Shown one piece after another: positions 8,465 through 29,688 of a stretch of DNA of 64,000 nucleotides. The notes under the pieces were generated by a model. It was not told the origin of the DNA. It did no database searches and worked only from the letters and a program-made list of their open reading frames with translations. The number at the start of each line of letters is the position of its first letter. Position 1 is the stretch's first letter. Where the stretch lies: NCBI RefSeq assembly GCF_053078305.1, contig NZ_CP166879.1, one strand, 5' to 3'. The position numbers and the translations under genes are program-made.

Positions 8465-8920
8465 GTGAACCTCCTACAAGATGGCATCAAATTGCATCGC
8501 GGTAACTTCACCGCTATCGGCCAGCAGATCCAGCCTTATCTGGAGAACGGAAAATGCTTTCGCATGGTGCTTAAACCGTGGCGTGAGAAACGCAGTCTTT
8601 CCCAGAATGCACTCAGCCACATGTGGTACAGCGAAATCAGTGAATACCTCATCAGCAGGGGGAAATCGTTCGCTACTTCAGCATGGGTAAAAGATGCTCT
8701 CAAACACACATACCTCGGTTATGAAACCAAGGACCTGGTTGATGTCGTAACCGGCGAAATCACTACTATCCAGTCGTTACGCCATACCTCCGATCTTGAT
8801 ACCGGAGAGATGTATGTCTTCCTGTGTAAGGTTGAAGCCTGGGCGGTGAATATTGGCTGCCACCTGACTATTCCGCAGAGCTGCGAGTTCCAGCTGCTGC
8901 GCGACAAGCAGGAGGCGTAA
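8465..8920 (+). CDS. ybcN: NinB/YbcN-like nin-region protein
   Basis: 151-aa ORF at the head of the DLP12-type order ybcN-ninE-ybcO-rusA-ylcG-Q; contains an S-Q-N motif. Confidence 0.5.
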
Positions 8921-9954: not shown

Positions 9955-10338
9955 ATGCGTGATATTCAGATGGTTCTTGAGCGTTGGGGAGCGTGGGCGG
10001 CTAATAATCATGAAGATGTGACCTGGTCGTCCATTGCCGCCGGTTTTAAGGGATTAATTCCTTCAAAAGTAAAATCTCGCCCGCAATGTTGTGACGATGA
10101 CGCGATGATCATTTGCGGGTGCATGGCCCGTCTGAAAAAGAACAACAGCGATTTGCACGATTTATTAGTAGATTATTATGTAGTCGGTATGACATTCATG
10201 TCACTGGCAGGTAAGCATTGCTGCTCTGATGGTTATATCGGGAAAAGGTTACAGAAGGCTGAGGGTATAATTGAAGGGATGTTAATGGCATTAGATATCC
10301 GGTTAGAGATGGATATCGTTGTTAATAACTCTAATTAA
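9955..10338 (+). CDS. quuD: Late-gene antiterminator Q (QuuD / phage-21-type)
   Basis: [34 protein letters not shown]... matches the DLP12/21-type Q as recalled; ORF track starts 15 nt upstream. Confidence 0.8.
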
Positions 10339-14149: not shown

Positions 14150-14375
14150 GGCCAACGGGTCCTTTCCGGCGATCCGACAGGTTACGGGGCGGCGACCTCG
14201 CGGGTTTTCGCTATTTATGAAAATTTTCCGGTTTAAGGCGTTTCCGTTCTTCTTCGTCGTAACTTAATGTTTTTATTTAAAATACCCCCTGAAAAGAAAG
14301 GAAACGACAGGTGCTGAAAGCGAGCTTTTTGGCCTCTGTCGTTTCCTTTCTCTGTTTTTGTCCGTGGAATGAACA
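14150..14375 (+). promoter_or_regulatory. Helper prophage cos site (cosQ-cosN-cosB); cosN cohesive-end sequence GGGCGGCGACCT at 14187-14198
   Basis: gttacggggcggcgacctcgcgggttttcgctatttatgaaaattttccgg matches the lambda cos region as recalled and sits directly upstream of Nu1. Confidence 0.85.
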
Positions 14376-14895
14376 ATGGAAGTCAACAAAAAGCAGCTGG
14401 CTGACATTTTCGGTGCGAGTATCCGTACCATTCAGAACTGGCAGGAACAGGGAATGCCCGTTCTGCGAGGCGGTGGCAAGGGTAATGAGGTGCTTTATGA
14501 CTCTGCTGCCGTTATAAAATGGTATGCCGAAAGGGATGCTGAAATTGAGAACGAAAAGCTGCGCCGGGAGGTTGAAGAACTGCGGCAGGCCAGCGAGGCA
14601 GATCTCCAGCCAGGGACTATTGAGTACGAACGCCATCGACTTACGCGTGCGCAGGCCGACGCACAGGAACTGAAGAATGCCAGAGACTCCGCTGAAGTGG
14701 TGGAAACCGCATTCTGTACTTTCGTGCTGTCGCGGATCGCAGGTGAAATTGCCAGTATTCTCGACGGGATCCCCCTGTCGGTGCAGCGGCGTTTTCCGGA
14801 ACTGGAAAACCGACATGTTGATTTCCTGAAACGGGATATCATCAAAGCCATGAACAAAGCAGCCGCGCTGGATGAACTGATACCGGGGTTGCTGA

Positions 14896-14921
<26 letters not shown>
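14376..14921 (+). CDS. Nu1: Terminase small subunit Nu1
   Basis: 181-aa protein near-identical to lambda Nu1 as recalled (MEVNKKQLADIFGASIRTIQNWQEQGMPVLRGGGKGNEVLYDSAAV...). Confidence 0.95.
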
Positions 14922-17850
<2,929 letters not shown>

Positions 17851-17977
17851 TTATGTCTATCATCTCCCCGTAGTTGTCCGCATCGTTCGCCAACTCCACT
17901 GAAACCCTTGCTGCGGCTGGAATGTCGTTTTCCATACTTTTGATGACCGTTCATCACACTTCCAGGTTTTCGCGGTT

Positions 17978-18031
17978 TTGTGTATTGCAATGTGTATTGC
18001 AAATTGGCGATCGGGATGGGTGTGTATTGCA
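17978..18031. repeat. Three copies of TGTGTATTGCAA upstream of the island integrase (attL-proximal, putative integrase binding sites)
   Basis: Copies at 17978-17989, 17990-18001 and 18020-18031; the same motif occurs in tandem at 29588-29610 near the other island end. Confidence 0.7.
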
Positions 18032-18050
18032 AATCTCTTGAGGGCTGTTA

Positions 18051-19292
18051 ATGGCTATTGAAAACAAACTCAGTGACAAACTGTTAAAGAGTCTTGTCGG
18101 AAAACGGCAGGACAAACAAAAAACAATAGCGGATGGGCGCGGGTTGTCTGTGCGTGTAAGCATGGTTGGGGGGATCAGCTTTGTTTTTTACTATCGTCTT
18201 GGTGGCAGGGAATCCCCTCCGGTATGGCTTACACTTGGGCGCTATCCTGATATGTCTCTTGCAACAGCCAGGCGCATGCGTGATCAGTGCCGTGAGTGGC
18301 TGGCTGAAAATCTGGACCCCCGCAGGCAAATAAAACTTGCCGCCGAAAAAACCATGCAACCAGTGACCGTAAGGGATGCGCTGTTTTACTGGTACGACAA
18401 TCACGCCACAACAGCCAGAAAAGAGCATGAATATTTAATAAAACGATTTGAAAAGCATATCTTCCCCTATATCGGTGATATGGCTATAGAACAGTGCAAA
18501 TTACACACATGGCTTGCCGTCTTTGACAGGATCAAAAAAAATGCGCCTGTTATGTCTGGTGCAATTTTTCTTGATATCAAACAGGCGTTGCGTTTTTGTC
18601 GCGTCAGGCAATACATCGCGTGCGATCCCTTTGGCGATATTAACGTAAGTTATGTCGGGCGCTCATCCGGTATAAGGGATCGCGTTCTTAATATCAATGA
18701 AACAGCGGATGTATGGTCTTATGCTTACGGTAATAATTTGCTGACACTGTCATCAATACATAACAGAAGAATAATGGTTATCTGCCTGGTGTTTGGTTGC
18801 CGTCAGCAGGAGGCGAGGTTATCCACATGGGACGAATGGGATTTAAAAAACTGGGTATGGACAGTCCCAAAAGAGCACAGCAAAAACAAGGAGGCCATAG
18901 TAAGGCCTGTTCCTGACGGCATAAAACAATGGCTCGTTAATCTTTACGCAGAAACAAAAAATCGCGGTTATGTTGTCGGTTGTGCTTTGCAAAGGGCGAC
19001 AATAACAGGGGCTGCAAACAGAATATGCAGGCGTCTTGGTCATGATATTAATGGCTTGTGGTGCATACATGATTTCAGGCGCACATTTTCCACTGCGCTT
19101 AATGATATGGGGGCGGATCCTTATATTGTCGAACTTCTTTTAGGTCATAAAGTGAAAGGGGTTGCCGGTGTTTACAATAAAAGCAGGCATATAAAGAAAA
19201 AACTTGAGGTGCTTAATATGTGGGTTAATTACCTTAATACGATAGCAGGATTTAACAACAACGTTATCGAGCTTAATAAAGAGGTGGTGTGA
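18051..19292 (+). CDS. int: Tyrosine integrase (P4-type, N-terminal arm-binding DUF4102-like domain)
   Basis: 413-aa ORF; N-terminal region resembles P4-family integrases; C-terminal catalytic motifs HDFRRTF, LLGH and VYNKS (Tyr). Confidence 0.9.
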   Translation: MAIENKLSDKLLKSLVGKRQDKQKTIADGRGLSVRVSMVGGISFVFYYRLGGRESPPVWLTLGRYPDMSLATARRMRDQCREWLAENLDPRRQIKLAAEKTMQPVTVRDALFYWYDNHATTARKEHEYLIKRFEKHIFPYIGDMAIEQCKLHTWLAVFDRIKKNAPVMSGAIFLDIKQALRFCRVRQYIACDPFGDINVSYVGRSSGIRDRVLNINETADVWSYAYGNNLLTLSSIHNRRIMVICLVFGCRQQEARLSTWDEWDLKNWVWTVPKEHSKNKEAIVRPVPDGIKQWLVNLYAETKNRGYVVGCALQRATITGAANRICRRLGHDINGLWCIHDFRRTFSTALNDMGADPYIVELLLGHKVKGVAGVYNKSRHIKKKLEVLNMWVNYLNTIAGFNNNVIELNKEVV

Positions 19293-19293
19293 T

Positions 19294-19551
19294 ATGGCAA
19301 TTTATTCTCTTGTTGATGAAAACGATTTGCGCACAATGAAGGACATTGATCGGTTCATTCGTGAAAAAGAGTGCATAGCACTTACCACGCTGGCAAACTC
19401 AACACGCTGGAAAATGGAGCAGGCAGGTAAATTCCCGCGACGTATCAAGATCGGTGAACGTGCGGCAGGGTATCGACTTTCAGAGGTTCAGGCATGGATC
19501 CGTGGTGAGTGGCATCCTGGATGGAAACCTGGAAAAACAAAACAGCAATAA
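19294..19551 (+). CDS. alpA: AlpA-family excisionase/transcriptional regulator
   Basis: 85-aa HTH protein (ALTTLANSTRWKMEQAGKFPRRIKIGERAAGYRLSEVQAWI) immediately downstream of int. Confidence 0.7.
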   Translation: MAIYSLVDENDLRTMKDIDRFIREKECIALTTLANSTRWKMEQAGKFPRRIKIGERAAGYRLSEVQAWIRGEWHPGWKPGKTKQQ

Positions 19552-19605
19552 CCAGTAAATAACGCCCCTCATCAAGAGGGGTTTTTGTCTATAGGGTAAA
19601 ACGCG

Positions 19606-20184
19606 ATGAATAAAAATATTGCCGTGACGGGCAAGGGGTACGCTCGTCCAGTGAAAAAATTCTGTGATATTCGTGATCTTGTCGTTCTGCGCTTTGATGG
19701 TGTGAGCGTTCGCGTGGTGTATGTGAACGGCGATCCGTGGTTTGTTGCCGTTGACGTGTGCGCTGCGCTGGAAATTGTTGATCACAAGGTTGCGTTACGC
19801 CGTCTCGATGATGATGAAAAGGGGGAGTGTTTAATACCCACCCCAGGTGGAAATCAAACAATGCGAACGGTATGCGAGTCAGGGTTCTACAAACTAATCG
19901 CCAGAAGTCGGAAAGCTGTTACTCCTGGCACGTTCGCCCGTCGTTTCAGTAACTGGGTATTCAGAAATGTGATACCAGGTATCAGAAAAACGGGGGCTTA
20001 TGGTATCCCGTGGGGGGCATTACAGGATTTTTCCCGCCGTAAAGAGCAATATCAAATAAGTGCCAGCGAGAAGGGGAGGGAGCTACAGGCATGTAAGCGC
20101 AAAAAACGTGAACTGGAGGAAGAAGAAAAAAGGCTGATACGTGAATATCAGCCTGAGTTTTACTTTGGTGAGCGTATTCAGTAA
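19606..20184 (+). CDS. Bro-N domain protein (prophage antirepressor-like)
   Basis: N-terminal Bro-N-like region (VRVVYVNGDPWFVAVDVCAALEI...FYKLIARSRKA) with a charged coiled C-terminus. Confidence 0.6.
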   Translation: MNKNIAVTGKGYARPVKKFCDIRDLVVLRFDGVSVRVVYVNGDPWFVAVDVCAALEIVDHKVALRRLDDDEKGECLIPTPGGNQTMRTVCESGFYKLIARSRKAVTPGTFARRFSNWVFRNVIPGIRKTGAYGIPWGALQDFSRRKEQYQISASEKGRELQACKRKKRELEEEEKRLIREYQPEFYFGERIQ

Positions 20185-20521
20185 CCACACGCGGTGCTGA
20201 TTATACGGTACATCGTGTTAACCGAGAAGCTACCCACCAGCAAGGCAAAATCTTCTGCTAAAAAATGACATATGGCCAGTCGTCCGGAAAGCATGAAATT
20301 TTACAAAAATGGAAAATGAAGATTTTTATTGTGCTGGTGGGTAAAAACAAAAAGCGCCCCGTTGCCGGAGCGCCCTTGTGAACAATTAACCTGCTGCGAA
20401 AAAATTGGATCAGTGCAGGGAAATTATATCAACTGTGTGAAGAAGCGCCACAATTGCCAGTTTAGCTTTGCGGCGAACGCGTCAATAAAGAATATTCTTT
20501 CTTTAAATTCTGTTTGTGTAT

Positions 20522-20551
20522 TTTTTCGTAGTTTTTCGTAGTTTTTCGTAA
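20522..20551. repeat. Tandem decamer repeat (TTTTTCGTAG)x3 in island intergenic region
   Basis: ttttttcgtagtttttcgtagtttttcgtaagg; a related palindromic motif cgaaattttcgtag occurs at 29194-29207. Confidence 0.8.
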
Positions 20552-20647
20552 GGAGAAAGAGCGGCGCGTATGCACCGCTAAGGAGTTTATTTTCATGACT
20601 TATGCAGCTTTCAATCTTAGCACCGCCGTAGCTGGTGGACAAGGCTA

Positions 20648-20875
20648 TCAGCCAGGCGGTCGGTTTTTAGTGGCTTTTAACCGCCGTGGGTATTTCTCGA
20701 CAAAATCTTCAAGGGCAAATTTTTCTGGTGGCACTAAGCGCGGCGCTGGTGGTGGTATTTTTGTTCTGGTTAGTTCTTCCTCAAGTCTGGCGCAGGCTTC
20801 TAACTGCCTTTGCCGGATGATTTCATCATCTTGCGTTTGCGTGTCTTGTATTGGTGATAGTGTGTTGTTGGTCAT
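20648..20875 (-). CDS. Hypothetical protein (island, leftward operon)
   Basis: 75-aa acidic ORF downstream of the RHH gene on the minus strand; weak RBS. Confidence 0.35.
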   Translation of the reverse strand: MTNNTLSPIQDTQTQDDEIIRQRQLEACARLEEELTRTKIPPPAPRLVPPEKFALEDFVEKYPRRLKATKNRPPG

Positions 20876-20932
20876 GATACTGCCCTGTAAAGCAATGCGC
20901 CGGAGTACCTCACGCCACGGCGCTGATAGTGA

Positions 20933-21238
20933 TTATTCTGATTCTTGGGTCTTGCGACGCTGGAGTTCTTCGCGTGCAACGGTGACAAGTTGCCCGATTT
21001 CTTCCGCTGCTTTGATGCCGATTTGTTCGACCTTAGCCAGAGCATCCAGTGAAGACACAAGGGGATTTTCTCCGCTGCCTTCTGCCTGGCGGCGGGCGAT
21101 TTCACCGCGCATGGCGGTTACTATGAATCCGGCGTTGCTTTCACCGTCCAGTTTTACGGATTCCATGCCTTCAATAACATCATGCGGGATCCGAGCTGTC
21201 AGTGATTGTGATTTTGCGTTTTTTGAACCTGTAGCCAT
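20933..21238 (-). CDS. Ribbon-helix-helix (CopG/Arc-like) putative regulator, divergent from the island rightward operon
   Basis: SLTARIPHDVIEGMESV resembles an RHH beta-strand plus helix; ATG 21238 with RBS gaggat preferred over the TTG at 21253. Confidence 0.45.
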   Translation of the reverse strand: MATGSKNAKSQSLTARIPHDVIEGMESVKLDGESNAGFIVTAMRGEIARRQAEGSGENPLVSSLDALAKVEQIGIKAAEEIGQLVTVAREELQRRKTQESE

Positions 21239-21797
21239 CTGTAATCCTCTCAATGAAAGTGTAAGACAATATACACATAAAAAGTCTTACATAAAAGCAT
21301 TGACATGTAAGCCACCTATAAATAAAGTTACTTACACCTTGTTAATGCAAGGTGCAGAAACGACGAAACCCGGCAGTGCGCTAACACTAACCGGGCTTCT
21401 AACCACCAACGATAGAAAGCGTATCGAGGTAGCTATGAGAAATCATACCACACACCCGCAAGGGCGGGACTCGCACAACCTGAATAAATACATCTGGCGT
21501 TTTCTGGCCCGAAAAAACCAGTTGATCGCCAGTGTCGAAAATAGCTATGATTCCCGCGCACCTCATAAAACGGGTGCCGGGATTGGCGTCCTGGGCAAAA
21601 CTGAAGCGCATAACACGCGCCCCGCGTGTTTTTTTGTGCCGCATAGTCACACCTTATCAATGGTGGGCTGTACGGGGGCGGAGCAATCCGCGCCGGTTTC
21701 TTCAGTGTCCGGTTACGCCAACCCTGTACAGTCCGCCACCAGCGAAATTGGCGTTTCCGGTGGCGGTTATCTTAACCACACTGAGGAGGCTGCCAAC

Positions 21798-21989
21798 ATG
21801 GCTACTATCCCTACCCTTGTACATTCTCAAACCGCCTTTCTCTGGCGCTTTATCATCTTTGGCGCGTCAGACCATCAAATCATCCACGTCACCGCCTGGA
21901 CGGAACGCGAAGCGCGTAGCCGTTGCCCGTCCGGTTGTGTTGCTGTATTCGCCGCCCGTATTCGTCAGGAGGTGTGCCATGTGCAATAA
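21798..21989 (+). CDS. Icd-like small protein (host cell-division inhibitor family, tentative)
   Basis: 63-aa ORF with strong RBS gaggagg; MATIPTLVHSQTAFLWRFIIFGASDHQIIHV... recalled as resembling Icd-like proteins of P4-type islands; it is the only plausible part of ORF 20595-21989. Confidence 0.4.
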   Translation: MATIPTLVHSQTAFLWRFIIFGASDHQIIHVTAWTEREARSRCPSGCVAVFAARIRQEVCHVQ

Positions 21990-22431
21990 AACCACACCGG
22001 ACGCAGCCGCCGCGCTCACTACACTGATGCACGCGCTGATTGATATTTCTGTTATTGCTGACAGGGCGCATAAGCACGCCACCAGTGAAACAGAATATGC
22101 CGGGGCTTTCGTTCCTCATTCGCTGGCGGTTATGCAACTTAGTGCTGATATGGCGCTGAATGAGGCCAAAGCTATCCTGATTTCTGATTGTGAAAATGGG
22201 GGGGGGGTTATGCGTGATGATCGTTTTAATGCCCTGAAACAGGAGTTTGATGGTGCGCCTGATGATGCAGGTGATGCGCTTTCGTCAATATCCGAACTGA
22301 TAAGAGTGGCCTTTTTCTTACTTGGCACGAAAGAATATAAATCAACTGGAATAGACGTACTGAATATTACTGCTGATTATGCGGAATATATGGCAGAAGT
22401 GGATTTAAGAAAGATAACGGACAGGGGGTAA
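21979..22431 (+). CDS. Hypothetical protein (island early operon)
   Basis: RBS aggagg before ATG 21979; the upstream part of ORF 21532-22431 is rejected as a spurious extension. Confidence 0.5.
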   Translation: MCNKTTPDAAAALTTLMHALIDISVIADRAHKHATSETEYAGAFVPHSLAVMQLSADMALNEAKAILISDCENGGGVMRDDRFNALKQEFDGAPDDAGDALSSISELIRVAFFLLGTKEYKSTGIDVLNITADYAEYMAEVDLRKITDRG

Positions 22432-22432
22432 T

Positions 22433-22666
22433 ATGCGTGATATTTACCACGAAACAATAGACCGCGCATTTAGTGCCCTTGCTTACGCTGAAGGTATGTA
22501 CGAAATATTGCAAATGTGTCTGGAAACATTTGGCGATAATGAGCGTGATGTAAAGAAGGCGCGGATTATTAAATCACTGATAACTCTCCTTGAACCTGTA
22601 ATAACAGAGTTGCAGGAAATAGACTTATTGCACGACAGATATAACGAACAGCACACCGGAGAATAA
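22433..22666 (+). CDS. Hypothetical protein
   Basis: 77-aa ORF tightly packed after the preceding gene (start 2 nt after its stop). Confidence 0.45.
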   Translation: MRDIYHETIDRAFSALAYAEGMYEILQMCLETFGDNERDVKKARIIKSLITLLEPVITELQEIDLLHDRYNEQHTGE

Positions 22667-22671
22667 AAATA

Positions 22672-22971
22672 ATGAAACTTAAATATCCTGGCTTAACTGC
22701 CAGTGGCAACACTCACCCTAAATTTACGCGCGGTGATATTTACCGCGACCAGTACGGCGGCACGGTAATGATTAAGGGCGTGGCGGGACGGTGCGTAACT
22801 TACCGCCGTGAAGGCTACGAATATGATTGCGTGATGCCTGTTTATCAGTTCCGGCGTGATTTTTCTCTGGTACAGACCGCGCCGCATAACGTGCCCACCA
22901 GCAACGCCAGGGCACGGGCAAACATCCAGAAGCTGAAAACCATGATTAACGGATTCAGGGGTAAAAAATGA
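22672..22971 (+). CDS. Hypothetical protein
   Basis: 99-aa ORF; 3' end overlaps the rep start by 4 nt. Confidence 0.45.
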   Translation: MKLKYPGLTASGNTHPKFTRGDIYRDQYGGTVMIKGVAGRCVTYRREGYEYDCVMPVYQFRRDFSLVQTAPHNVPTSNARARANIQKLKTMINGFRGKK

Positions 22972-24377
22972 AACTGGCACCGAACGTAAAACGATTACCG
23001 AAAGATAAATACACCGAAGCGGTTATTTTTGCGGGTATTGATGCTCACTCATTCGCAGAGCATTACATCATTGCACAGGCCAAAAAAGCAGGCGATCCAG
23101 TCCCTCCCGTTTATCTGGGGCGTTATCAGTTAAGCGAACTGGATAACCTCCAGATTGTTGATGATGGGCGATACAGGGCGACGGTGATACGCGCCGGAAA
23201 TATTGAAGAGCCGCAGCTGTTAACCATCGCCACGAAACTGGCGAGCGCCGGAGTCCAGGAGGCGCGGCTACTTTCTGAAAATTTCGAATTGCTGGAGGAA
23301 TGGAGCGACCAGCTTCCACGGCTTAGGGAGGCATGGGAACGCGGGGAAAGCCTGGTCATGAAAAAAATTCCCCAGCGAAAAACCACGCTACCGATGAGCG
23401 TTGGATCTACCGGATACGACACACAGCTTGATTACGTGGTAAAGGGGATTATTCCGGCATCGTCGCTTTGCAGCATATACGGGGCGAGCGGTTCCTATAA
23501 ATCATTCCTTGCCGGATCGTGGGCGTGTCACGTTTCCACGGGCCGCCAGTGGGGAGGCCGCAGGGTGGCGCATGGCGCTGTTCTCTATGTGGTTGGTGAA
23601 GGCGGTATCGGCGTTCCGCGTCGTGTAAAAGCCTGGGAGGTTGTGCACGGTGAGCAGGTGAAAAATCTGTATCTGGTAAACCGTCCCATCTTTCCGGCTG
23701 TCCCGCTTGATGTTGATGAACTGGTTATTGCTGCCAGTCAGGTGGAGAGGGAAACGGGTAAACCTGTTCGCATGATTATTCTGGACACGCTGGCGCGTTG
23801 CTTTGGCGGCAATGATGAAAATGACTCCCGCGACATGGGGGCATTTATCCGTGGTTGTGACGAGCTTAAACGGCGCACAGGGGCTACGGTGCTGGTGGTT
23901 CACCATTCCGGCAAGGATGAAACAAAGGGGGCGCGTGGTTCCAGTGCATTTCGTGCATCACTGGACGCTGAATACCGGATACGCAGGGAGGACGCAGGAA
24001 GCGAAGCGCTGGTTATCTCATGCACCAAAATGAAGGACGCGGAGGAACTCAAAGAGGCTGCCTATGATTTGCGGGTGGTGGAGCTTTTTACCGACGCTGA
24101 CGGGGAGTTAATTACGTCGCTGGTGGTGGTGGATAAGCCGCGCCCTCCCGTTGAACTGGAGCGCATCGAGGAGGCAGGCAACAAGACGGAAAACCATACC
24201 GCGCTATGGGGGTGCATCCGTTCACGCACACAGAACGGCGACAAGTGCACGATCCCGCTGTTACGTGACGATATGAAAAAGCTGGGGTATGACACAAAAC
24301 ACCTTAAACGATGGTTAGCCAAACTGGAAAAAGACGACGTGATCTACATTGACGGTGATGATGTAGGACCACTGTAA
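22968..24377 (+). CDS. rep: Replication initiator/helicase (RepA-like AAA_25 RecA-fold ATPase with N-terminal primase-C-like region)
   Basis: Walker A-like SIYGASGSYKSFLA, Walker B-like RMIILDTLAR, and TVLVVHHSGKD; followed directly by an iteron array. Confidence 0.75.
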   Translation: MKLAPNVKRLPKDKYTEAVIFAGIDAHSFAEHYIIAQAKKAGDPVPPVYLGRYQLSELDNLQIVDDGRYRATVIRAGNIEEPQLLTIATKLASAGVQEARLLSENFELLEEWSDQLPRLREAWERGESLVMKKIPQRKTTLPMSVGSTGYDTQLDYVVKGIIPASSLCSIYGASGSYKSFLAGSWACHVSTGRQWGGRRVAHGAVLYVVGEGGIGVPRRVKAWEVVHGEQVKNLYLVNRPIFPAVPLDVDELVIAASQVERETGKPVRMIILDTLARCFGGNDENDSRDMGAFIRGCDELKRRTGATVLVVHHSGKDETKGARGSSAFRASLDAEYRIRREDAGSEALVISCTKMKDAEELKEAAYDLRVVELFTDADGELITSLVVVDKPRPPVELERIEEAGNKTENHTALWGCIRSRTQNGDKCTIPLLRDDMKKLGYDTKHLKRWLAKLEKDDVIYIDGDDVGPL

Positions 24378-24582
24378 AAAGTGGGCATTAAAAGTGGGAA
24401 AGGTGGGCGATTTAACGTAATTTTAACAAAATCACCCACTTTCCCACGTGTATATATCCCAAAAAGTGGGCACTAAAAAAATACCTATGAAACAAGATGA
24501 TATAAATCCCAAACTTCCCACGTTGGACGAAGTGGGAAAACGTAAAAAGTGGGCGAAAAAAGTGGGTAGAGGTGGGCAAATG
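24375..24582. repeat. Island origin of replication: iteron array with GTGGG core (AAAGTGGGCA/AAGTGGGAAA, direct and inverted copies)
   Basis: About 8 direct and 3 inverted copies of (A)AGTGGG(C/A) within ~200 bp immediately 3' of rep. Confidence 0.7.
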
Positions 24583-24831
24583 ACTCAAAAACACAGAGAC
24601 AGAACAGAGCCAAAATATAAAGCGTTAGACATGACAGAGCACGCTTTAAAGGTGGCAATCAGGGTAATAGACCGCCACACGCGGGAAGGATACGCGAAGG
24701 AACATCCCGACCTGATAAGCGCATTCATGACCACAGCGGCGGCAAACTTTGCCACGCTGACAGAACGGGAGATAGCCGAAGCGGAACAGGTAACAACCAT
24801 CAACGTTAAAACCGGAGAGGTGGAATCATGA
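24580..24831 (+). CDS. Hypothetical protein
   Basis: In-frame ATG just after the iteron array; the upstream part of ORF 24448-24831 overlaps the iterons and is unlikely to be coding. Confidence 0.4.
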   Translation: MTQKHRDRTEPKYKALDMTEHALKVAIRVIDRHTREGYAKEHPDLISAFMTTAAANFATLTEREIAEAEQVTTINVKTGEVES

Positions 24832-25238
24832 CAGCACAGATAGCCGCTTACGGGCGGCTGGTGGACGACCCGCAGGTAAAACAAACCAGCAAGGGCACAC
24901 CGATGACGCTGGCGCGTATGGCGGTATCTCTGCCATGCAGCCAGGCACAGGACGGGCAGGCTACGTTATGGCTATCAGTGATGGCATTTGGTAAGCAGGC
25001 CGACTTCCTGGCTAAACATCAAAAAGGCGATGTTGCCAGCGTATCCGGCACGATGCAGGTAAGCCAGTGGACCAGACAGAACGGGGAAACGCGGCAGGGT
25101 TATCAGGTTATTGCAGACAGTGTAATCAGTGCCCGTGCTGCCCGTCCTGGCGGGAGCAGACGTACAACCACAGGCACACAGGGTAATCAGCCACCAGCGG
25201 GAGGCGATGACCCTTACGGTGACGGTATTCCGTTCTGA
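24828..25238 (+). CDS. ssb: Single-stranded DNA-binding protein (SSB-like)
   Basis: OB-fold signature (LWLSVMAFGKQADFL...KGDVASVSGTM) and acidic C-terminal tail DDPYGDGIPF. Confidence 0.7.
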   Translation: MTAQIAAYGRLVDDPQVKQTSKGTPMTLARMAVSLPCSQAQDGQATLWLSVMAFGKQADFLAKHQKGDVASVSGTMQVSQWTRQNGETRQGYQVIADSVISARAARPGGSRRTTTGTQGNQPPAGGDDPYGDGIPF

Positions 25239-25248
25239 GGGGGTGACG

Positions 25249-25521
25249 ATGGTACATGACCGCATAGCGGAGGAACTCGAGGCAAAAGGCTTTTACCGGA
25301 GGGCGGCGGCGCGATGGGGTGAAGTTATGCAGCTGGTGGAGACAGACAAGGAACGGCATCAGGTTACGATGCGACGGCTGGAATGTTCCAGGAAGGCACA
25401 GAGGCCACCGGAGCCGCCGGATAACTTCGGAGACCTGAAAAAAGCAGTAGATCGCACTTATGCCGAAATGGGTATGGATGGTGTAAGCGATGAAATATGG
25501 CGTAATTACCCAGACAGCTAA
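25249..25521 (+). CDS. PerC-family transcriptional activator-like protein
   Basis: AEELEAKGFYRRAAARWGEVMQLVETDKERHQV resembles the PerC/Pch signature; RBS gagggg; real start internal to ORF 25129-25521. Confidence 0.5.
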   Translation: MVHDRIAEELEAKGFYRRAAARWGEVMQLVETDKERHQVTMRRLECSRKAQRPPEPPDNFGDLKKAVDRTYAEMGMDGVSDEIWRNYPDS

Positions 25522-25527
25522 TCAACA

Positions 25528-25549
25528 GCCGGAGAAATCCGGCTTTTTT
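25528..25549 (+). terminator. Intrinsic terminator (GCCGGAGAAATCCGGC + T6)
   Basis: Perfect hairpin plus T-run directly after the PerC-like gene; the identical hairpin recurs at 27802-27824. Confidence 0.7.
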
Positions 25550-25561
25550 GTACCCAAAAAA

Positions 25562-25598
25562 AGCCCGATAAGTACAGGAGGCATCTTATCGGGCTTTT
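25562..25598 (+). terminator. Second tandem intrinsic terminator
   Basis: agcccgataag...cttatcgggct hairpin followed by tttt. Confidence 0.55.
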
Positions 25599-25676
25599 GC
25601 ATATGAGGTTTTTTTGGTGCACTGACACACATGATCGGGGTAATCATTTCATAATTTGCAACACAACTCAACATCA

Positions 25677-25737
25677 TTGCACAAAATGCAATCCTGATTA
25701 TAATCAGAGCTGGATGAACATCCAGTTCTGATTTTTT
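25677..25737 (+). promoter_or_regulatory. Sigma70-like promoter followed by a hairpin and U-run, upstream of the island capsid/packaging operon
   Basis: TTGCAC (25677-25682), 16-nt spacer, TATAAT (25699-25704); hairpin ctggatg-aa-catccag (25710-25725) then ttctgatttttt. Confidence 0.5.
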
Positions 25738-25760
25738 AAGTCAAAGAGGAATTTCTTACT

Positions 25761-25967
25761 ATGGCTGAAGAGAAAAAAGGCGGTGTTTCGGTGTACATAA
25801 GCCCCGAAATCGTGGAGGTGCTCAAGCAGCGCCACAAAAAAAACTATGAGGCTGGCGTAGCGGCTGGACTGGATCCGCTGATGACGCCGGAGCCGTCGAT
25901 AGGTTCACTTGTGCGCTCTTATTTACTTGCGGCGCTTGGGATGCATAAAAATTATGGTGGTGAATAA
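25761..25967 (+). CDS. Hypothetical small protein (first gene of island morphogenetic operon)
   Basis: 68-aa ORF with RBS agagga; stop overlaps the capsid gene start. Confidence 0.4.
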   Translation: MAEEKKGGVSVYISPEIVEVLKQRHKKNYEAGVAAGLDPLMTPEPSIGSLVRSYLLAALGMHKNYGGE

Positions 25968-27022
25968 TGACAGTAAAAGCAATGGCACTTACAACTAACC
26001 AGCTTTTCGCGTACCTGAATCGCGGGGATATTGCAGAATTTAAATTCAGTCCGCTGTTTACCACGCTGTTTTTCCCGAACGTGGCGACCTTCAACACCCA
26101 GAACATCATGCTGGACACCCTGGACATTGAAGAGGTTACGATGTCAGCGTTCTGTTCGCCTATGGTGGGTAGTCAGGTCCAGCGCGATAAAGGGTACGAA
26201 ACCAGCACGATTAAACCAGGCTACATGAAACCCAAACACGAAATCGATCCAACAAAAACCATCATGCGCATGGCTGGAGAAGATCCGGCACAGCTTAACG
26301 ACCCTACCTACCGCCGTATGCGCCTGATTACTGGCAACATGCGCCGCCAGATAAACGCCATTAAAGCGCGCGTGGAATGGCTGGCGGTGAATGCGATAAC
26401 GACCGGAAAAAACATCATTGAGGGCGAAGGCATAGAACGCTATGAAATCGACTGGAAAATACCGGAAAACTGCATCATAGAGCAGGCCAAGGGTAAAAAA
26501 TGGTCCGAGCATGATAAAGATATTTACGATCCAATCTATGACATCGAACTATACGCAGATCAGGCAGGTTGCCCCGCCAACGTCATGATTATGGGCGCTG
26601 AGGTATGGCGCACGTTACGCAGCTTTAAAAAATTCCGCGAACTGTACGATCTTTCCCGTGGTTCAGAATCCGCCGCAGAACTGGCCTGTAAAAACCTGGG
26701 TGAAGTAGTGAGCTTTAAAGGCTATCTGGGCGATATTGCCCTTATCGTCTATTCCGGCAAATACACTGACAGCGACGGTACCGAAAAATATTTCCTTGAG
26801 CCTGATTTGCTGGTCCTGGGTAACACCAACAATAAAGGGCTGGTGGCCTATGGTGCGATTATGGATCAGGAAGCGGTAAGAACGGGCGCAACGCAAAACA
26901 TGTTCTACCCGAAAAACTGGATTGAAGACGGCGATCCGGCGATTGAGTACGTTCAGACGCACAGCGCACCGCAGCCGGTACCGGCAGATATTCGCAAATT
27001 TGTTACCGTCAAAATTGCTTAA
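25967..27022 (+). CDS. Major capsid protein homologue (diverged lambda gpE-like, HK97 fold)
   Basis: Collinear with the helper E at 32160-33185: FKFSPLFTTLFF / FKFDPLFLRLFF, KPGYMKPKHEIDP / TPGYVKPKHEVNP, DPTYRRMRLITGNMRRQINAI / DPAYRRRRIIMQNMRDEELAI. Confidence 0.8.
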   Translation: MTVKAMALTTNQLFAYLNRGDIAEFKFSPLFTTLFFPNVATFNTQNIMLDTLDIEEVTMSAFCSPMVGSQVQRDKGYETSTIKPGYMKPKHEIDPTKTIMRMAGEDPAQLNDPTYRRMRLITGNMRRQINAIKARVEWLAVNAITTGKNIIEGEGIERYEIDWKIPENCIIEQAKGKKWSEHDKDIYDPIYDIELYADQAGCPANVMIMGAEVWRTLRSFKKFRELYDLSRGSESAAELACKNLGEVVSFKGYLGDIALIVYSGKYTDSDGTEKYFLEPDLLVLGNTNNKGLVAYGAIMDQEAVRTGATQNMFYPKNWIEDGDPAIEYVQTHSAPQPVPADIRKFVTVKIA

Positions 27023-27033
27023 CGGGGGATTCT

Positions 27034-27369
27034 ATGGACACTCCATACATTGAGTTATTTGCAGGCAGTCAGCAGGTATCCACGACGCTGGTACATTTTG
27101 CCGCTGATGCTGGCGTTATTCAGGAATTTACCCCGCTGATGCTGGCGGACAATGGCGAGTTTAAGCCGTGGGATGGTCAGGAATCTGGCAAGGCTGTTTA
27201 TCTGACCTCGTACCCCGTGGACACGTCAAAGCAGAAATCAGCACAGTGTTACAAGACGGGGATATTTAATATCGCCGCCGTAAACTGGCCTGAGAGCGCC
27301 GACACTGACGCGAAAAAATGCGCCGCCTTTGCGGGTTCTGGCGTATCCGTTCAGCCGCTGGCGCGATAA
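27034..27369 (+). CDS. Head decoration protein homologue (diverged lambda gpD-like)
   Basis: 111 aa; TPLMLADNGEFKPWDG...AAFAGSGVSV parallels the helper D (31766-32104) [17 protein letters not shown]...[11 protein letters not shown]. Confidence 0.7.
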   Translation: MDTPYIELFAGSQQVSTTLVHFAADAGVIQEFTPLMLADNGEFKPWDGQESGKAVYLTSYPVDTSKQKSAQCYKTGIFNIAAVNWPESADTDAKKCAAFAGSGVSVQPLAR

Positions 27370-27381
27370 GCAGGGGAAACG

Positions 27382-27795
27382 ATGGCAACGAATGAAAGCA
27401 TCATGGCGCTACCGCTGGCGAGTAAATTTAAAGCAGAAGCGCGGGCAATGGCTGACAGAGGTTTATCAACCTACGAGGCCGTATATCAACTCAACAAACT
27501 GGAAGAGCAGGACAAGCCGCGCGCTGATGCGATTATGGCGCTTCATGAACATAACGACTATCAGCCGCTGTTACGTGCAATGGCAAACGTGCCATGTATT
27601 AGCGTCGATAATGCTCGTGAAATCCTGAACATGACCATAGAGCAGGAGCGCCCAAAGGTTGCGCCGGAGCTTACCGCAGCCTTTGAAAACTTTATGGACA
27701 TGCACAGCCCGAAAGCCGTATCACCCGGCATGGCATACGACGGCAGAAACCAGGGCGATGAAGGCGACGTCGATCGCATACTGAAAACCATCTGA
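27382..27795 (+). CDS. Hypothetical protein (island morphogenetic operon)
   Basis: 137-aa ORF followed by a strong terminator; no family recognised. Confidence 0.45.
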   Translation: MATNESIMALPLASKFKAEARAMADRGLSTYEAVYQLNKLEEQDKPRADAIMALHEHNDYQPLLRAMANVPCISVDNAREILNMTIEQERPKVAPELTAAFENFMDMHSPKAVSPGMAYDGRNQGDEGDVDRILKTI

Positions 27796-27801
27796 CATAA
27801 G

Positions 27802-27824
27802 GCCGGAGAAATCCGGCTTTTTTT
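27802..27824 (+). terminator. Intrinsic terminator (GCCGGAGAAATCCGGC + T7)
   Basis: Same hairpin as at 25528; ends the capsid operon just before the island cos. Confidence 0.7.
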
Positions 27825-27825
27825 A

Positions 27826-27895
27826 CGGGTCCTTTCCGGCATATGGACCCGTTACGGGGCGGCGACCTCGCGGTTTTTCGCTATTTATGAGCTTT
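27826..27895 (+). promoter_or_regulatory. Island cos site: cosN identical to the helper (GGGCGGCGACCT at 27857-27868), with a distinct downstream cosB-like region
   Basis: gggtcctttccggc...gttacggggcggcgacctcgcggtttttcgctatttatga aligns with the helper cos at 14155-14222, then diverges before terS. Confidence 0.7.
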
Positions 27896-28001
27896 TTTCG
27901 GGTGCTGGTGGTGGTTTTGTTTTTCGCTCTATCTCTATGAATAAAAAGGGAAAGATAAAACCAATACACCAACCTGAAACATTACTTAAGTGGGGATATT
28001 G

Positions 28002-28544
28002 ATGAAATCGCACCTGATGAACAAAAAAAACATGGCGCAAAGCTGCCGTGTAAGTGCGACAGCGTTCGACAAGTGGGGAGTGACTCCCGTTGAACGTAAA
28101 GGACGCGAGGCTTTTTACGATGTTGCCAGCGTGATAGACAATCGGGTAAGCAATGCAATTAACCAGGTTACAAACGACAAAGGCGAGATTGATGATGATG
28201 AACTCTTACGAGTCAGGATCAGATTACTGACCGCCCAGGCTGAGGCGCAGGAACTTAAAAACGAGCGCGATCGCGGTGACGTAATTGATACTGAGTTTTG
28301 CCTGTACGCGCTTTCAAAGCTGGCGAGTCAGATTTCTTCAATCATGGACAGTTTGCCGCTTACCATGCAAAGGCGCTTCCCGCAGATTACTCCCGCTATG
28401 CTGGATGGGCTTAAAAGGGAAGTGGTTAAAGCCTGTAATGCCAGTGCCACAGTTGCCGACAACCTCCCGAAGATACTGGCTGATTACCTGATGGAAACTA
28501 CCGGAGACGTACCGGAGAAGTTGCTACAGAAGAAAGGCGAGTAA
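28002..28544 (+). CDS. Terminase small subunit homologue (Nu1-like, divergent N-terminal DNA-binding region)
   Basis: C-terminal two-thirds collinear with Nu1 (LTAQAEAQELKNERDRGDVIDTEFCLYALSKLASQISSIMDSLPLTMQRRFPQI vs LTRAQADAQELKNARDSAEVVETAFCTFVLSRIAGEIASILDGIPLSVQRRFPEL); N-terminal ~50 aa diverged. Start 28002 chosen by RBS. Confidence 0.75.
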   Translation: MKSHLMNKKNMAQSCRVSATAFDKWGVTPVERKGREAFYDVASVIDNRVSNAINQVTNDKGEIDDDELLRVRIRLLTAQAEAQELKNERDRGDVIDTEFCLYALSKLASQISSIMDSLPLTMQRRFPQITPAMLDGLKREVVKACNASATVADNLPKILADYLMETTGDVPEKLLQKKGE

Positions 28545-28689
28545 CAGACGCGCAATTATTGAACAAAAGTAAGGCCCGACATGAAATCACCCAAAAATGC
28601 CTTTTTCATGCGTTTGTATGTCTGACCTTTTACGGTTTCGATATTATAAAAAACAAATAGTTACGCTCGAGAGGTACCGACACGCATTT

Positions 28690-28775
28690 TTCAGGAAAAT
28701 TTTCATAAACAGATAAAAACCGCGAGGTCGCCGCCCCGTAACGGGCCATAATTCCAGGAAGGACCCGACGACACC
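28690..28775 (-). promoter_or_regulatory. Second cos-like site in inverted orientation (cosN at 28725-28736, minus strand), helper-like flank
   Basis: Minus-strand read gttacggggcggcgacctcgcggtttttatctgtttatgaaaattttcc shares ttatgaaaattttcc with the helper cosB side; no terminase gene lies downstream in this orientation. Confidence 0.6.
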
Positions 28776-28800
28776 AGGCTATCAGAACGATGAGGGCACA

Positions 28801-29082
28801 ATGACAGAAGCCGAACTACTGGGATTAATCCGCTACGTTACCGGAATCAGCCAGCAGCATGACGAACAGGCCACGCAGCCGGACAGCGTGACCGCTGAAA
28901 ATTATGCGCGTGTTGTTGCTGAGGTGATGCGCCGTGATGGTATCCAGCTTAATGATGCAGATATGCGCGACATACGGATCCGCGTTCTTGAAATGCTGGC
29001 CTACCGTCGCCGCGTGCAGACGTACAGGGAAAAAGCAAAAATAACGTACCAGTGGAAGAAGCCGGAGCGATTACGGCGGTAA
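28801..29082 (+). CDS. Hypothetical protein
   Basis: 93-aa ORF near the right island end; no family recognised. Confidence 0.4.
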   Translation: MTEAELLGLIRYVTGISQQHDEQATQPDSVTAENYARVVAEVMRRDGIQLNDADMRDIRIRVLEMLAYRRRVQTYREKAKITYQWKKPERLRR

Positions 29083-29477
29083 CTTGCTGATATTCCCGAT
29101 AACGCAAAATTGCGCTCTGTCCTAACCCGTTGATATTTTCGGGAACAGCCAACGGCTGAGGCCGGAACAACGATTATCTTTCAGATAGTCAGAGCTACGA
29201 AATTTTCGTAGTTTAATTACTCGCCAGTTTATCGTTAACTCGTTGATATTTTCGGTAACCTCAATTTGAGGAGATCGGAAACATAACCCTTCACATTCTG
29301 AATGGTTATAATGACCACTCAGACCATCAAGGCAACCATAACGAACATCGTTACGGTTGGAGCTTTTACCCCACTGGGGGGAAGGTGCACATCTGGATCA
29401 TCATTACCGTGATCAAGGGTATGTAAAACCCACCAGCCTGATTAACTGTTAACCGGAAAAAAGCCAGGTAGCCAATC

Positions 29478-29501
29478 TCGATATGGGGATCCCCATATCG
29501 A
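29478..29501. repeat. Perfect 24-bp palindrome TCGATATGGGGATCCCCATATCGA
   Basis: Exact inverted repeat centred on GGATCC within the ~600-bp non-coding right arm of the island. Confidence 0.9.
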
Positions 29502-29587
29502 CATTAACGCCCCCTAGAACTGCGCATATCTGCATATAAAAACATCCACCAGCTTTATGACGGATGCCGCTCATCTGATAAATAATC

Positions 29588-29610
29588 GTGTATTGCAATG
29601 TGTATTGCGA
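29588..29610. repeat. Two tandem copies of (T)GTGTATTGC(A/G)A near the island right end (attR-proximal)
   Basis: gtgtattgcaatgtgtattgcga; same motif as the attL-proximal triplet at 17978-18031. Confidence 0.7.
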
Positions 29611-29688
29611 CTCCTTTAAACGATAGGTTTGAGCATTCGTAATGTACTGTTTTTAAATTTTATTTTTTCCTGTCTTTTCATAAAAGCC

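Follow-up and report, generated by a model that had tools for sequence, protein, structure and literature searches.

The satellite island and its two hairpin copies

The window (the whole 64-kb stretch of DNA that was analysed) contains a lambda-like helper prophage whose portal reading frame breaks off at about 17866 and is taken up again at about 29690, with the helper genes Nu1, A and W upstream of the interrupting island and C, D and E downstream. The island carries int, alpA, Bro-N, isrK/C4 RNAs, a RepA-type helicase, iterons (24374-24566, directly past the helicase gene), SSB, PerC, a capsid-homologue cassette, cos1, terS, cos2 and o93, with Pfam matches to integrase, Phage_AlpA, the AAA_25 helicase and SSB. 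Its int and alpA genes, its replication gene followed by an origin, its unidirectional gene order and its size within 10-20 kb identify it, by sequence, as a Gram-negative PICI of the EcCICFT073 family. Its insertion within the portal gene makes it a PICI embedded in a helper prophage, a published arrangement (HE-PICI; PMC10111431), and the junction of portal and int is common to 61 complete E. coli genomes at about 99% identity. The island/portal junctions have in common just an imperfect AT(T/G)TATG block and yielded no exact att core, and a 21-nt exact repeat at 17980 and 29588, inside the island ends, is more likely an integrase arm-site motif. The features of the locus are given below.

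17867-29689, + strand: whole satellite, about 11.8 kb, in the helper portal gene (end coordinates approximate)
25249-25521, + strand: PerC-family gene, 90 aa from the ATG used in RefSeq relatives (PF06069, E = 1e-44; RefSeq annotation of relatives)
25528-25549, + strand: hairpin copy 1, predicted intrinsic terminator (stem 25528-25533/25538-25543, loop GAAA, T6)
25559-25598, + strand: bidirectional-looking second terminator hairpin (A-run, 14-bp stem, T-run; -20.5 kcal/mol, z = -4.1)
25677-25704, + strand: putative cassette promoter (TTGCAC, 16 nt, TATAAT), presumed from sequence and alignment
25702-25737, + strand: 14-bp hairpin with T-run, third terminator-like element (-21.9 kcal/mol, z = -7.0)
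25761-27795, + strand: capsid-homologue cassette (PF03864, PF02924; PHROGs 3255, 29, 49, 1999)
25761-25967, + strand: o68
25967-27022, + strand: lambda-E-type major capsid protein (MCP)
27034-27369, + strand: lambda-D-type decoration protein (Dec)
27382-27795, + strand: o137
27802-27824, + strand: hairpin copy 2, predicted intrinsic terminator (same 16-mer, T7), at the end of the capsid-homologue operon
27825-27868, + strand: island cos1, cosQ-like ACGGGTCCTTTCCGG followed by cosN GGGCGGCGACCT (27857-27868)
27990-28544, + strand: island Nu1-type small terminase, TerS (PF07471, phrog_57)
28725-28736, - strand: cosN of island cos2, in inverted orientation, with no hairpin before its cosQ

The 16-mer GCCGGAGAAATCCGGC followed by T6 occurs exactly twice in the window, from 25528 and from 27802, both times on the + strand (16-mer at 25528-25543 and 27802-27817), and no third match was found in the 64 kb when up to two mismatches were allowed. 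Shuffling of the window gave an expectation of 0.05 matches to the 16-mer, and none of the 100 shuffles reached two. A repeat search showed that the identity runs into the T-run over 22 nt (25528-25549 equals 27802-27823), and the sequences flanking the two copies are unrelated. The core stem of both copies is a G+C-rich stem of 6 bp with 5 G-C pairs, closed by a GAAA (GNRA) tetraloop, and flanking A-U pairs lengthen it to 7 pairs in copy 1 and 9 pairs in copy 2, with fold energies of -12.6 kcal/mol (z = -4.2) and -14.0 kcal/mol (z = -5.0), respectively. The T tracts lie directly 3' of the stems (T6 at 25544-25549 and T7 at 27818-27824), and copy 1 is among the terminators listed by a consensus scan. 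Copy 1 begins 6 nt after the stop codon (25519-25521) of the PerC-family gene, which is the last gene before it, and copy 2 begins 6 nt after that of o137 (27793-27795), the last cassette gene. The description and coordinates of an earlier note, which had placed the same hairpin with a T-run behind the PerC-like gene and behind the last gene of the cassette, thus proved accurate. Each copy combines a G+C-rich stem-loop, a T tract and a co-oriented gene end just upstream, and by this anatomy both hairpins are ordinary Rho-independent terminators with a predicted termination activity.

Between the two copies, the hairpin at 25559 opens the cassette's own homology block and is kept at the head of every right flank of the type we call R1. 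The TATAAT of the putative promoter is invariant in 30 unique relatives and TTGCA repeats lie around its -35, which matches only 3 of 6 positions, and for this reason the element was missed by the consensus scan. The -10 runs into the hairpin at 25702-25737, which is placed 24-60 nt before the o68 start codon (25761); this hairpin would be terminator-like for transcripts begun upstream, and its pair 25707:25728 is G:C, U:A, C:G, U:G and also G:A across relatives. The island MCP is 42% identical to helper gpE and the island TerS 36% identical to helper Nu1. No similarity was found between the cassette promoter region and the helper late region, and hijacking of helper Q found no support, as comparison of the promoter and hairpin region with the helper Q-to-lysis region gave chance 8-12-mers only. 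For a role of o137 as a Nu3-type scaffold, the sole hint is a weak PHROG hit that covers the C-terminal end of proteins in a protease family (E = 1.5e-9), and o137 has no significant similarity to helper C/Nu3.

Occurrence of the hairpin in relatives and in other genomes

In the related loci a hairpin copy was found behind 40 of 40 PerC, 21 of 21 o74x and 41 of 41 o137 gene ends (102/102 in 86 loci), counts that do not represent independent events, since the loci were gathered by exact hairpin match and many are near-identical E. coli strains. Some SSB and o127 gene ends also carry the hairpin, and in capsid-forming PICIs it stands ahead of their unrelated HK97 module, so that the idea of a hairpin specifically bracketing the morphogenetic cassette had to be abandoned. 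The stem is near-invariant and without compensatory variation across these relatives, an invariance that in part follows from how the loci were gathered, and the loop is GAAA, GCAA, GTAA, GAAG or GAAAA, with an ACA-type trinucleotide often conserved just before the hairpin. Behind o137 the loop in relatives is always GAAA, and the usual state is a GCAA loop in the upstream copy and a GAAA loop in the downstream copy. The two copies are exactly identical in just 2 of 36 relatives; the identical reuse at both boundaries is true in the window but is not the usual state of the family. There are 2-3 copies per 10-kb island. The closest portal-embedded relatives (L247 and L248) have a different E/D cassette and are without PerC, o68, o137 and the hairpin; both have cos1, and their equivalent junctions do without the hairpin.

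The hairpin was found in 912 of 5,426 E. coli genomes (17%), in no more than five places per genome, and every context that was spot-checked is a PICI. The exact hairpin occurs in no lambdoid phage genome, and the best matches in E. coli phages are imperfect ones in P1-like phages; capture of the hairpin together with a phage cos was rejected, as phage PhiR5_1 has the common cos region yet no hairpin. Outside E. coli, among the matches listed from GTDB genomes, a 21-mer of the hairpin was found at more than 120 sites across unrelated phyla in comparison to about 0.3 expected by calculation; 94 of 122 listed copies sit just past a long same-strand ORF, and no PICI markers were seen beside them. 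Judged by these sequence contexts, the 21-mer is a generic terminator design on which bacteria at large have converged, but it is PICI-confined within E. coli, where contexts were spot-checked. The view that a hairpin common genome-wide would be a generic terminator therefore received a split answer.

Mosaic joints at the hairpin and their explanation

Copy 1 joins at least six kinds of left flank to at least five kinds of right flank; an E-type capsid cassette, the HK97 capsid-forming module, a cassette with a small ORF and a site resembling cos are among the latter. Both PerC alleles, a and b, were seen in front of each of three right modules (E-capsid cassette, o74x cassette, HK97 module), and no left-by-right combination that was tested was missing. 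There are 57 homology breakpoints in 41 nt at copy 1 in comparison to about 1.8 expected, many of them at its exact edges, with 22 HSPs of right homology starting at 25527/8 and 23 HSPs of left homology ending at 25548/9, and 14 loci differ from the window solely by an insert between two hairpin copies. Copy 1 thus lies between unrelated flanks in several combinations, with breakpoints inside the sequence, as expected of a boundary or linker sequence, and copy 2 is weak as a linker, with 6 breakpoints and 43 relatives aligning straight across it. Copy 1 is a major mosaic joint and copy 2 is rarely a joint; the proposal that both hairpins stand at module boundaries is correct for terminators and correct only for copy 1 as far as major joints are concerned. 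Comparably strong joints without the hairpin are found on the island at about 23040 and about 24560-24620, so recombination has no need of it.

These breakpoints also bear on the reading of the two hairpins as the outer limits, left and right, of a late-gene cassette mobile as one unit, from terminator to terminator. The cassette is one unbroken homology block, with no breakpoint common to four or more HSPs (20-nt bins) in 25560-27820; it occurs behind PerC, SSB or an extra small ORF in different islands, homology to L247 resumes at 27826, directly past the T-run of copy 2, and two copies literally enclose the small o74x ORF. However, copy 1 stays with PerC or SSB when HK97 or o74x lies downstream, the block's own left end is the 25559 hairpin and not copy 1, and the usual right-hand joint lies at about 27900, after cosN and about 80 nt past copy 2, so that cassette, copy 2 and cosQ/cosN travel together. 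We regard the terminator-to-terminator unit as rather unlikely, although a modular cassette acquired as a unit, as the earlier note had suggested, stands in so far as the cassette is a coherent exchangeable block.

We consider it probable that both hairpins are copies of one family-specific terminator that closes PICI modules, with a shared origin and an exchange point mainly at copy 1. EcCICFT073-type PICIs and EcCIEDL933-type capsid-forming PICIs would close each co-directional module with this terminator. Copy 1 would end the replication/PerC unit and, together with the hairpins at 25559-25598 and 25702-25737, may insulate a capsid-homologue operon that has its own promoter-like site, and copy 2 would end this operon 1 nt before the cosQ of cos1. 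The copies would be alike because of their shared origin and not because of separate selection, and since neighbour modules that are otherwise unrelated have just the hairpin sequence in common, exchange would have been resolved repeatedly within it, for the most part at copy 1. The exact identity in the window would come from a PerC allele with a GAAA-loop copy joined directly to the cassette, a layout to be expected from a crossover between the hairpin copies on the two sides of the o74x mini-cassette, an optional element of relatives. The hairpin may itself promote recombination and not merely survive it, and, more tentatively, it could be an adaptor of about 22-27 nt by which short-homology recombination lets PICIs swap whole packaging modules, a proposal we find somewhat doubtful. 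If true, it would cover the switch between borrowers of helper capsids (E-type cassette and cos) and builders of their own capsids (HK97 module), and would make the linker model of mosaic evolution, proposed long ago, accessible to experiment in one concrete case.

A stem without compensatory change beside a varying loop, the ACA-type trinucleotide in front of it and the superficially integron-cassette-like appearance of the o74x mini-cassette would also be compatible with a site recognised by its sequence, for instance by an antitermination factor, by an RNase or by a recombinase that mobilises cassettes. The AlpA of P. aeruginosa is a Q-like antiterminator (PMC7969949, PMC9371919); it is larger than the island AlpA and has a 21Q-like fold. 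This raised the possibility that the island AlpA reads through the hairpins. The island AlpA (85 aa, PF05930) was rejected as an antiterminator: its one match is 8c3t ('AlpA family phage regulatory protein'), no match to antiterminator chains was found even at E up to 10, and it has no sequence match to the Pseudomonas protein, so the common name is a coincidence. An integron gene cassette was rejected as well, the 16-mer being a perfect palindrome without GTTRRRY-type cores or other attC features, and the only recombinase on the island is a phage-type integrase with an Arm-DNA-binding domain and different att sequences. No candidate factor was found, the cassette promoter region is unlike the helper late region, and the invariance of the stem may reflect recent common descent as well as the way the loci were gathered; a recognition site is in our judgement improbable.

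That the hairpin belongs to the packaging signal, extending cosQ rather than acting primarily as a terminator, is suggested by the position of copy 2 next to the cosQ of cos1, and by L125, L126 and other loci, in which the upstream copy follows SSB and is itself followed at once by a diverged cosQ/cosN-like site. Nevertheless, the hairpin is missing at the helper cos (14187), the PhiR5_1 cos, the island cos2 and the L247 cos1, for which reason this role was rejected, and the L248 cos1 also lacks it; many copies precede sequence other than cos (o74x, the HK97 module, the cassette promoter region), leaving the cosQ extension very improbable. Independent convergence, in which the copies are unrelated cases of a thermodynamically favoured generic terminator, would fit the marker-free copies behind ORFs of unrelated phyla but is hardly credible here, given the absence of the hairpin from 83% of E. 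coli genomes, its location in PICIs wherever checked, the repeated copies within single islands, the flank-swap junctions that have the hairpin in common to the base and the rarity of matches in shuffled windows.

Significance and comparison with known systems

The verdict is that the hairpins are ordinary terminators that serve this family as its own boundary sequence. In a widespread family of E. coli phage satellites every module is closed by one terminator sequence, and replication/regulatory modules meet at least five different downstream modules at it, the capsid-forming one included. The hairpin offers satellite biologists a precise landmark for module boundaries, and it is a likely explanation for the left halves common to classic PICIs and capsid-forming PICIs. 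It also provides a simple test system for whether mosaic evolution is driven by short conserved boundary sequences or just leaves them intact, and the terminators are relevant to the engineering of PICI-based delivery vehicles.

EcCICFT073 is the prototype Gram-negative PICI, with the c1499 capsid and c1500 decoration genes, cos1/cos2 and Rpp (PMC6092414, PMC6739421), and homologues of c1499/c1500, which make up the cassette between the terminators, are dispensable for its transfer (PMC6092414). The window island is 91.6% identical to it in DNA over SSB, PerC, o68, MCP, Dec and o137 (2.8 kb), in the same gene order, with both hairpin positions present (9422 and 11694 of its locus, L001), cos1 behind the second hairpin and an inverted cos2. 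The island cos1 is equivalent to the EcCICFT073 cos site behind the same hairpin (L001 position 11749), and cos1 and cos2 of EcCICFT073 are published, whereas the hairpins go unmentioned in the same descriptions (PMC6092414, PMC6739421). It differs in that the upstream copy of CFT073 has a GCAA loop and another PerC allele, in that CFT073 has Rpp where the window island has the Nu1-type TerS, and in that the CFT073 island is chromosomal, near phoQ and pepT, in comparison to the helper portal gene for the window island. In comparison to HE-PICI (PMC10111431), the window island shares the portal location, with the junction seen in the 61 E. coli genomes, whereas L247 and L248 carry the other E/D cassette and the right half of the window island is of the CFT073 type.

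Short conserved boundary ('linker') sequences have been proposed at the mosaic joints of lambdoid phages, as summarised in PMC3029335 (its refs 21 and 22). Similarly, a 22-nt hairpin (about 27 nt with the preceding ACA) is conserved here between unrelated modules, with breakpoints inside it; unlike those linkers as described there, it is a functional-looking terminator and belongs to a family of satellites, not to phages, and its causal role in recombination would be a presumed one. Morons, a concept cited in PMC3029335, are insertions of promoter, gene and terminator in phage genomes. The optional o74x ORF, for which no Pfam match was found, resembles them: it sits between PerC and the packaging module as an insertion that brings a terminator along behind it. 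Since this terminator duplicates the resident one, however, gain or loss of o74x is explicable by exchange between two copies. An insulating terminator was shown experimentally in Tn916 (PMC11658703), where a terminator within a mobile element is likewise proposed to silence a module until the right moment; that element and its sequence are different, and in the PICI island the insulation is a predicted one.

The split portal gene and the embedded island

The lambda-B-type portal gene of the helper prophage was found to be split (17021-17866 and 29690-30462), the product reading …QSAIVKA up to the break at about 17866 and MYAATIESE… from the restart at about 29690, and the interruption is a satellite of 11.8 kb, with C/Nu3, D and E lying downstream of the portal remainder. 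The portal-integrase junction is common to 61 complete E. coli genomes at approximately 99% identity. The main features are as follows.

Head genes of the lambda-like prophage: Nu1 at 14376, A at 14896, W at 16818, portal at 17021
Island left part, in order: integrase, AlpA-family protein, Bro-N protein
Island RNAs, after Bro-N: isrK and C4-type RNAs
Island replication part: RepA-type helicase, iterons, SSB, PerC
25559-25598: bidirectional-looking hairpin
Between hairpin copies 1 and 2: 68-aa ORF (o68), lambda-E-type capsid protein, lambda-D-type decoration protein, 137-aa ORF (o137)
3' of copy 2: cosQ/cosN, Nu1-type small terminase, inverted second cos, 93-aa ORF

Some further elements were also observed. 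The matches to isrK (21558-21634) and C4 antisense RNA (21656-21743) have Rfam scores above the gathering score, sit within a 464-aa mechanical ORF (20595-21989) that is probably no gene, and are consistent with a P4-like immunity region. Three iterons GTAAAAAGTGGGC (24374-24566, spacing about 84 nt) lie directly 3' of the helicase gene and are probably the replication origin of the island, and four TGTGTATTGCAA repeats lie near the two island ends (17979-18034 and 29588-29612), among them a 21-nt stretch that is exactly the same at 17980 and at 29588; arm-type sites of the integrase are a more probable identity for them than the crossover core. The exact lambda-type cosN GGGCGGCGACCT occurs three times in the window, at 14187 (+, helper), 27857 (+, cos1) and 28736 (-, inverted cos2). 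Identification of the island AlpA with the Pseudomonas AlpA antiterminator was rejected, as the proteins are not related. No detectable relationship of o137 to the helper's scaffold was found.

Terminator-like hairpins around the capsid cassette

The hairpin GCCGGAGAAATCCGGC has two exact matches in the window, both on the + strand, at 25528 (copy 1) and 27802 (copy 2), just as the earlier note had described them, in comparison to an expected count of 0.05 in the shuffled window, and no third match was found in the window with up to two mismatches allowed. The two copies are identical over 22 nt, T-tract included, their flanks are without kinship, and in each case a stop codon lies 6 nt before the start. 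Both fold into a G+C-rich stem of 6 bp closed by a GAAA tetraloop, with U6 or U7 directly 3' of it (folding energies -12.6 and -14.0 kcal/mol). Their anatomy, position and conservation fit ordinary intrinsic terminators.

Shortly before the first cassette gene (25699-25737), an invariant TATAAT within a perfect palindrome CTGATTATAATCAG makes up the 5' arm of a 14-bp hairpin with a T-run (25702-25737), and TTGCA repeats flank the -35; one stem pair is G:C, U:A, C:G or U:G in relatives, but G:A mismatches also occur. This element looks like a regulated promoter which doubles as a terminator of upstream transcripts. No likeness of the promoter region to the helper late region was seen. The cassette is preceded by three successive terminator-like elements (copy 1, 25559-25598 and 25702-25733), which would insulate it from upstream transcription and, if so, leave it dependent on its own promoter, and copy 2 would halt the cassette transcripts ahead of cos1. 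The helper Q gene (9955-10338), which appears to be of the QuuD type by collinearity with a close portal-embedded relative (L247), is co-oriented with the cassette in the embedded state and situated 5' of it. From what is established on lambdoid Q proteins, Q-modified polymerase would be expected to read through these hairpins.

The hairpin as a boundary between modules

For comparison, 80 viral-contig loci were chosen by exact hairpin match and their 144 copies were sorted by neighbouring genes. In this set, selected for the hairpin and consisting mostly of close E. coli kin, a copy was present at all complete gene ends of PerC (40/40), o137 (41/41) and the 74-aa ORF o74x (21/21), and the stem was almost invariant (substitutions in 4 of 144 copies), with GAAA, GCAA, GTAA, GAAG and GAAAA as loop variants.

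Loops of the hairpin copies, by neighbouring genes
Copies between o137 and cos1 with TerS/Rpp: GAAA without exception
Copies between PerC and o74x: GAAA, apart from one with GCAA
Copies directly ahead of o68 or the HK97 module: GCAA for the most part
Copies behind SSB or o127 where the island has no PerC further on: GCAA for the most part

Because the 16-mers are identical in only 2 of the 36 loci having both bracketing copies, the identity of copies 1 and 2 that the earlier note had pointed out is an exception.

Breakpoints were taken as internal alignment ends of the island against the comparison loci. Exactly at the two edges of copy 1, 22 alignments start (25527/8) and 23 end (25548/9). 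Altogether, 57 breakpoints lie within 41 nt versus about 1.8 expected under an even spread, and in 14 loci an insert between two hairpin copies is the sole difference from the window. The hairpin joins at least six left-flank classes (three PerC alleles, two o74x alleles, SSB, o127) to at least five right-flank classes (E-capsid cassette, o74x cassette, HK97 module, cos-like site, others). Three right-hand modules were seen with PerC allele a and likewise with allele b. On its left side and in its GAAA loop, copy 1 of the window is of the "PerC to o74x" type, and in its T6 and right flank it is of the "o74x to cassette" type; a crossover between copies of these two types would leave such a sequence. 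The modular interpretation made earlier is borne out in part. Copy 2 is seldom a joint, with 43 loci aligned across it and only 6 breakpoints at 27826. The usual right-hand joint is at about 27900, 3' of cosN, the point from which islands of the TerS type differ from those of the Rpp type (Rpp is the EcCICFT073 protein at the TerS position). Homology to the closest portal-embedded relatives nevertheless restarts exactly at 27826. As judged from these alignments, both hairpins represent one boundary sequence, specific to this family, where PICI modules have been reshuffled.

The hairpin may either promote recombination or simply be all that is conserved where viable recombinants are joined; joints of similar strength elsewhere in the island lack a hairpin. 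That it is simply a generic terminator is true in part. Among the matches listed, the 21-mer, made up of the hairpin with either loop and a T5 tail, was present at at least 120 places in unrelated phyla, versus about 0.3 expected by our own calculation, 77% of them directly 3' of a long co-oriented ORF and none beside PICI genes, and this recurrence across phyla therefore points to convergence on what makes a good terminator. In E. coli, however, only 912 of 5,426 complete genomes carry the 21-mer (median one place, maximum five), the flank patterns among the rows listed fall into two contexts, and three of three spot checks lay inside PICIs; no lambdoid phage genome was found with the hairpin. 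In this host the hairpin is, on this sequence evidence, a satellite-family marker, and independent origins for the several copies of one island are implausible. That it belongs to the cos site was rejected, since the cos sites of phage and helper lack it.

Related islands and published systems

The o74x ORF (L002 9547-9771, L003 9549-9773), which has no Pfam match, is optional and moron-like in lying between two hairpin copies, the extra copy in both loci being 3' of it; it occurs in classic and capsid-forming PICIs and is absent from the window. L002 is itself a capsid-forming PICI, in which an HK97-type module for capsid, portal and terminase comes after PerC and the hairpin. Another right-hand module, seen in a spot check 3' of an SSB-hairpin junction, encodes a ClpP-like protease/major capsid fusion (L251 4142-6030, strain CEC01302, annotated as frameshifted). 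In the portal-embedded islands nearest to this one, the E/D capsid cassette is a different one (L247 20810-22596, L248 20809-22595). Its third gene encodes, where o137 would stand, a Phage_AlpA-domain protein of 127 aa, and PerC, o68 and a terminator hairpin before cos1 are all absent from these islands. In PerC-less islands such as L125 and L126 (both 8804-8880), SSB and the hairpin directly precede a diverged, putative cos-like site, acgggtcctcctggcgg…acggggcgggaggcgcgg, oriented as cos1, and in these islands the capsid cassette therefore lies between two cos-like sites.

The capsid and decoration genes (c1499/c1500) and two cos sites of EcCICFT073, the CFT073 island and prototype Gram-negative PICI, have already been published (PMC6092414, PMC6739421), and the hairpins are without mention in the papers examined. 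EcCICFT073 is 91.6% identical to the window over the PerC-to-o137 segment and carries the hairpin at both positions, its upstream copy having a GCAA loop. Late genes of lambdoid helpers are known insertion sites of such islands, termed HE-PICIs (PMC10111431), and the split portal gene in the window matches this published helper-embedded arrangement.
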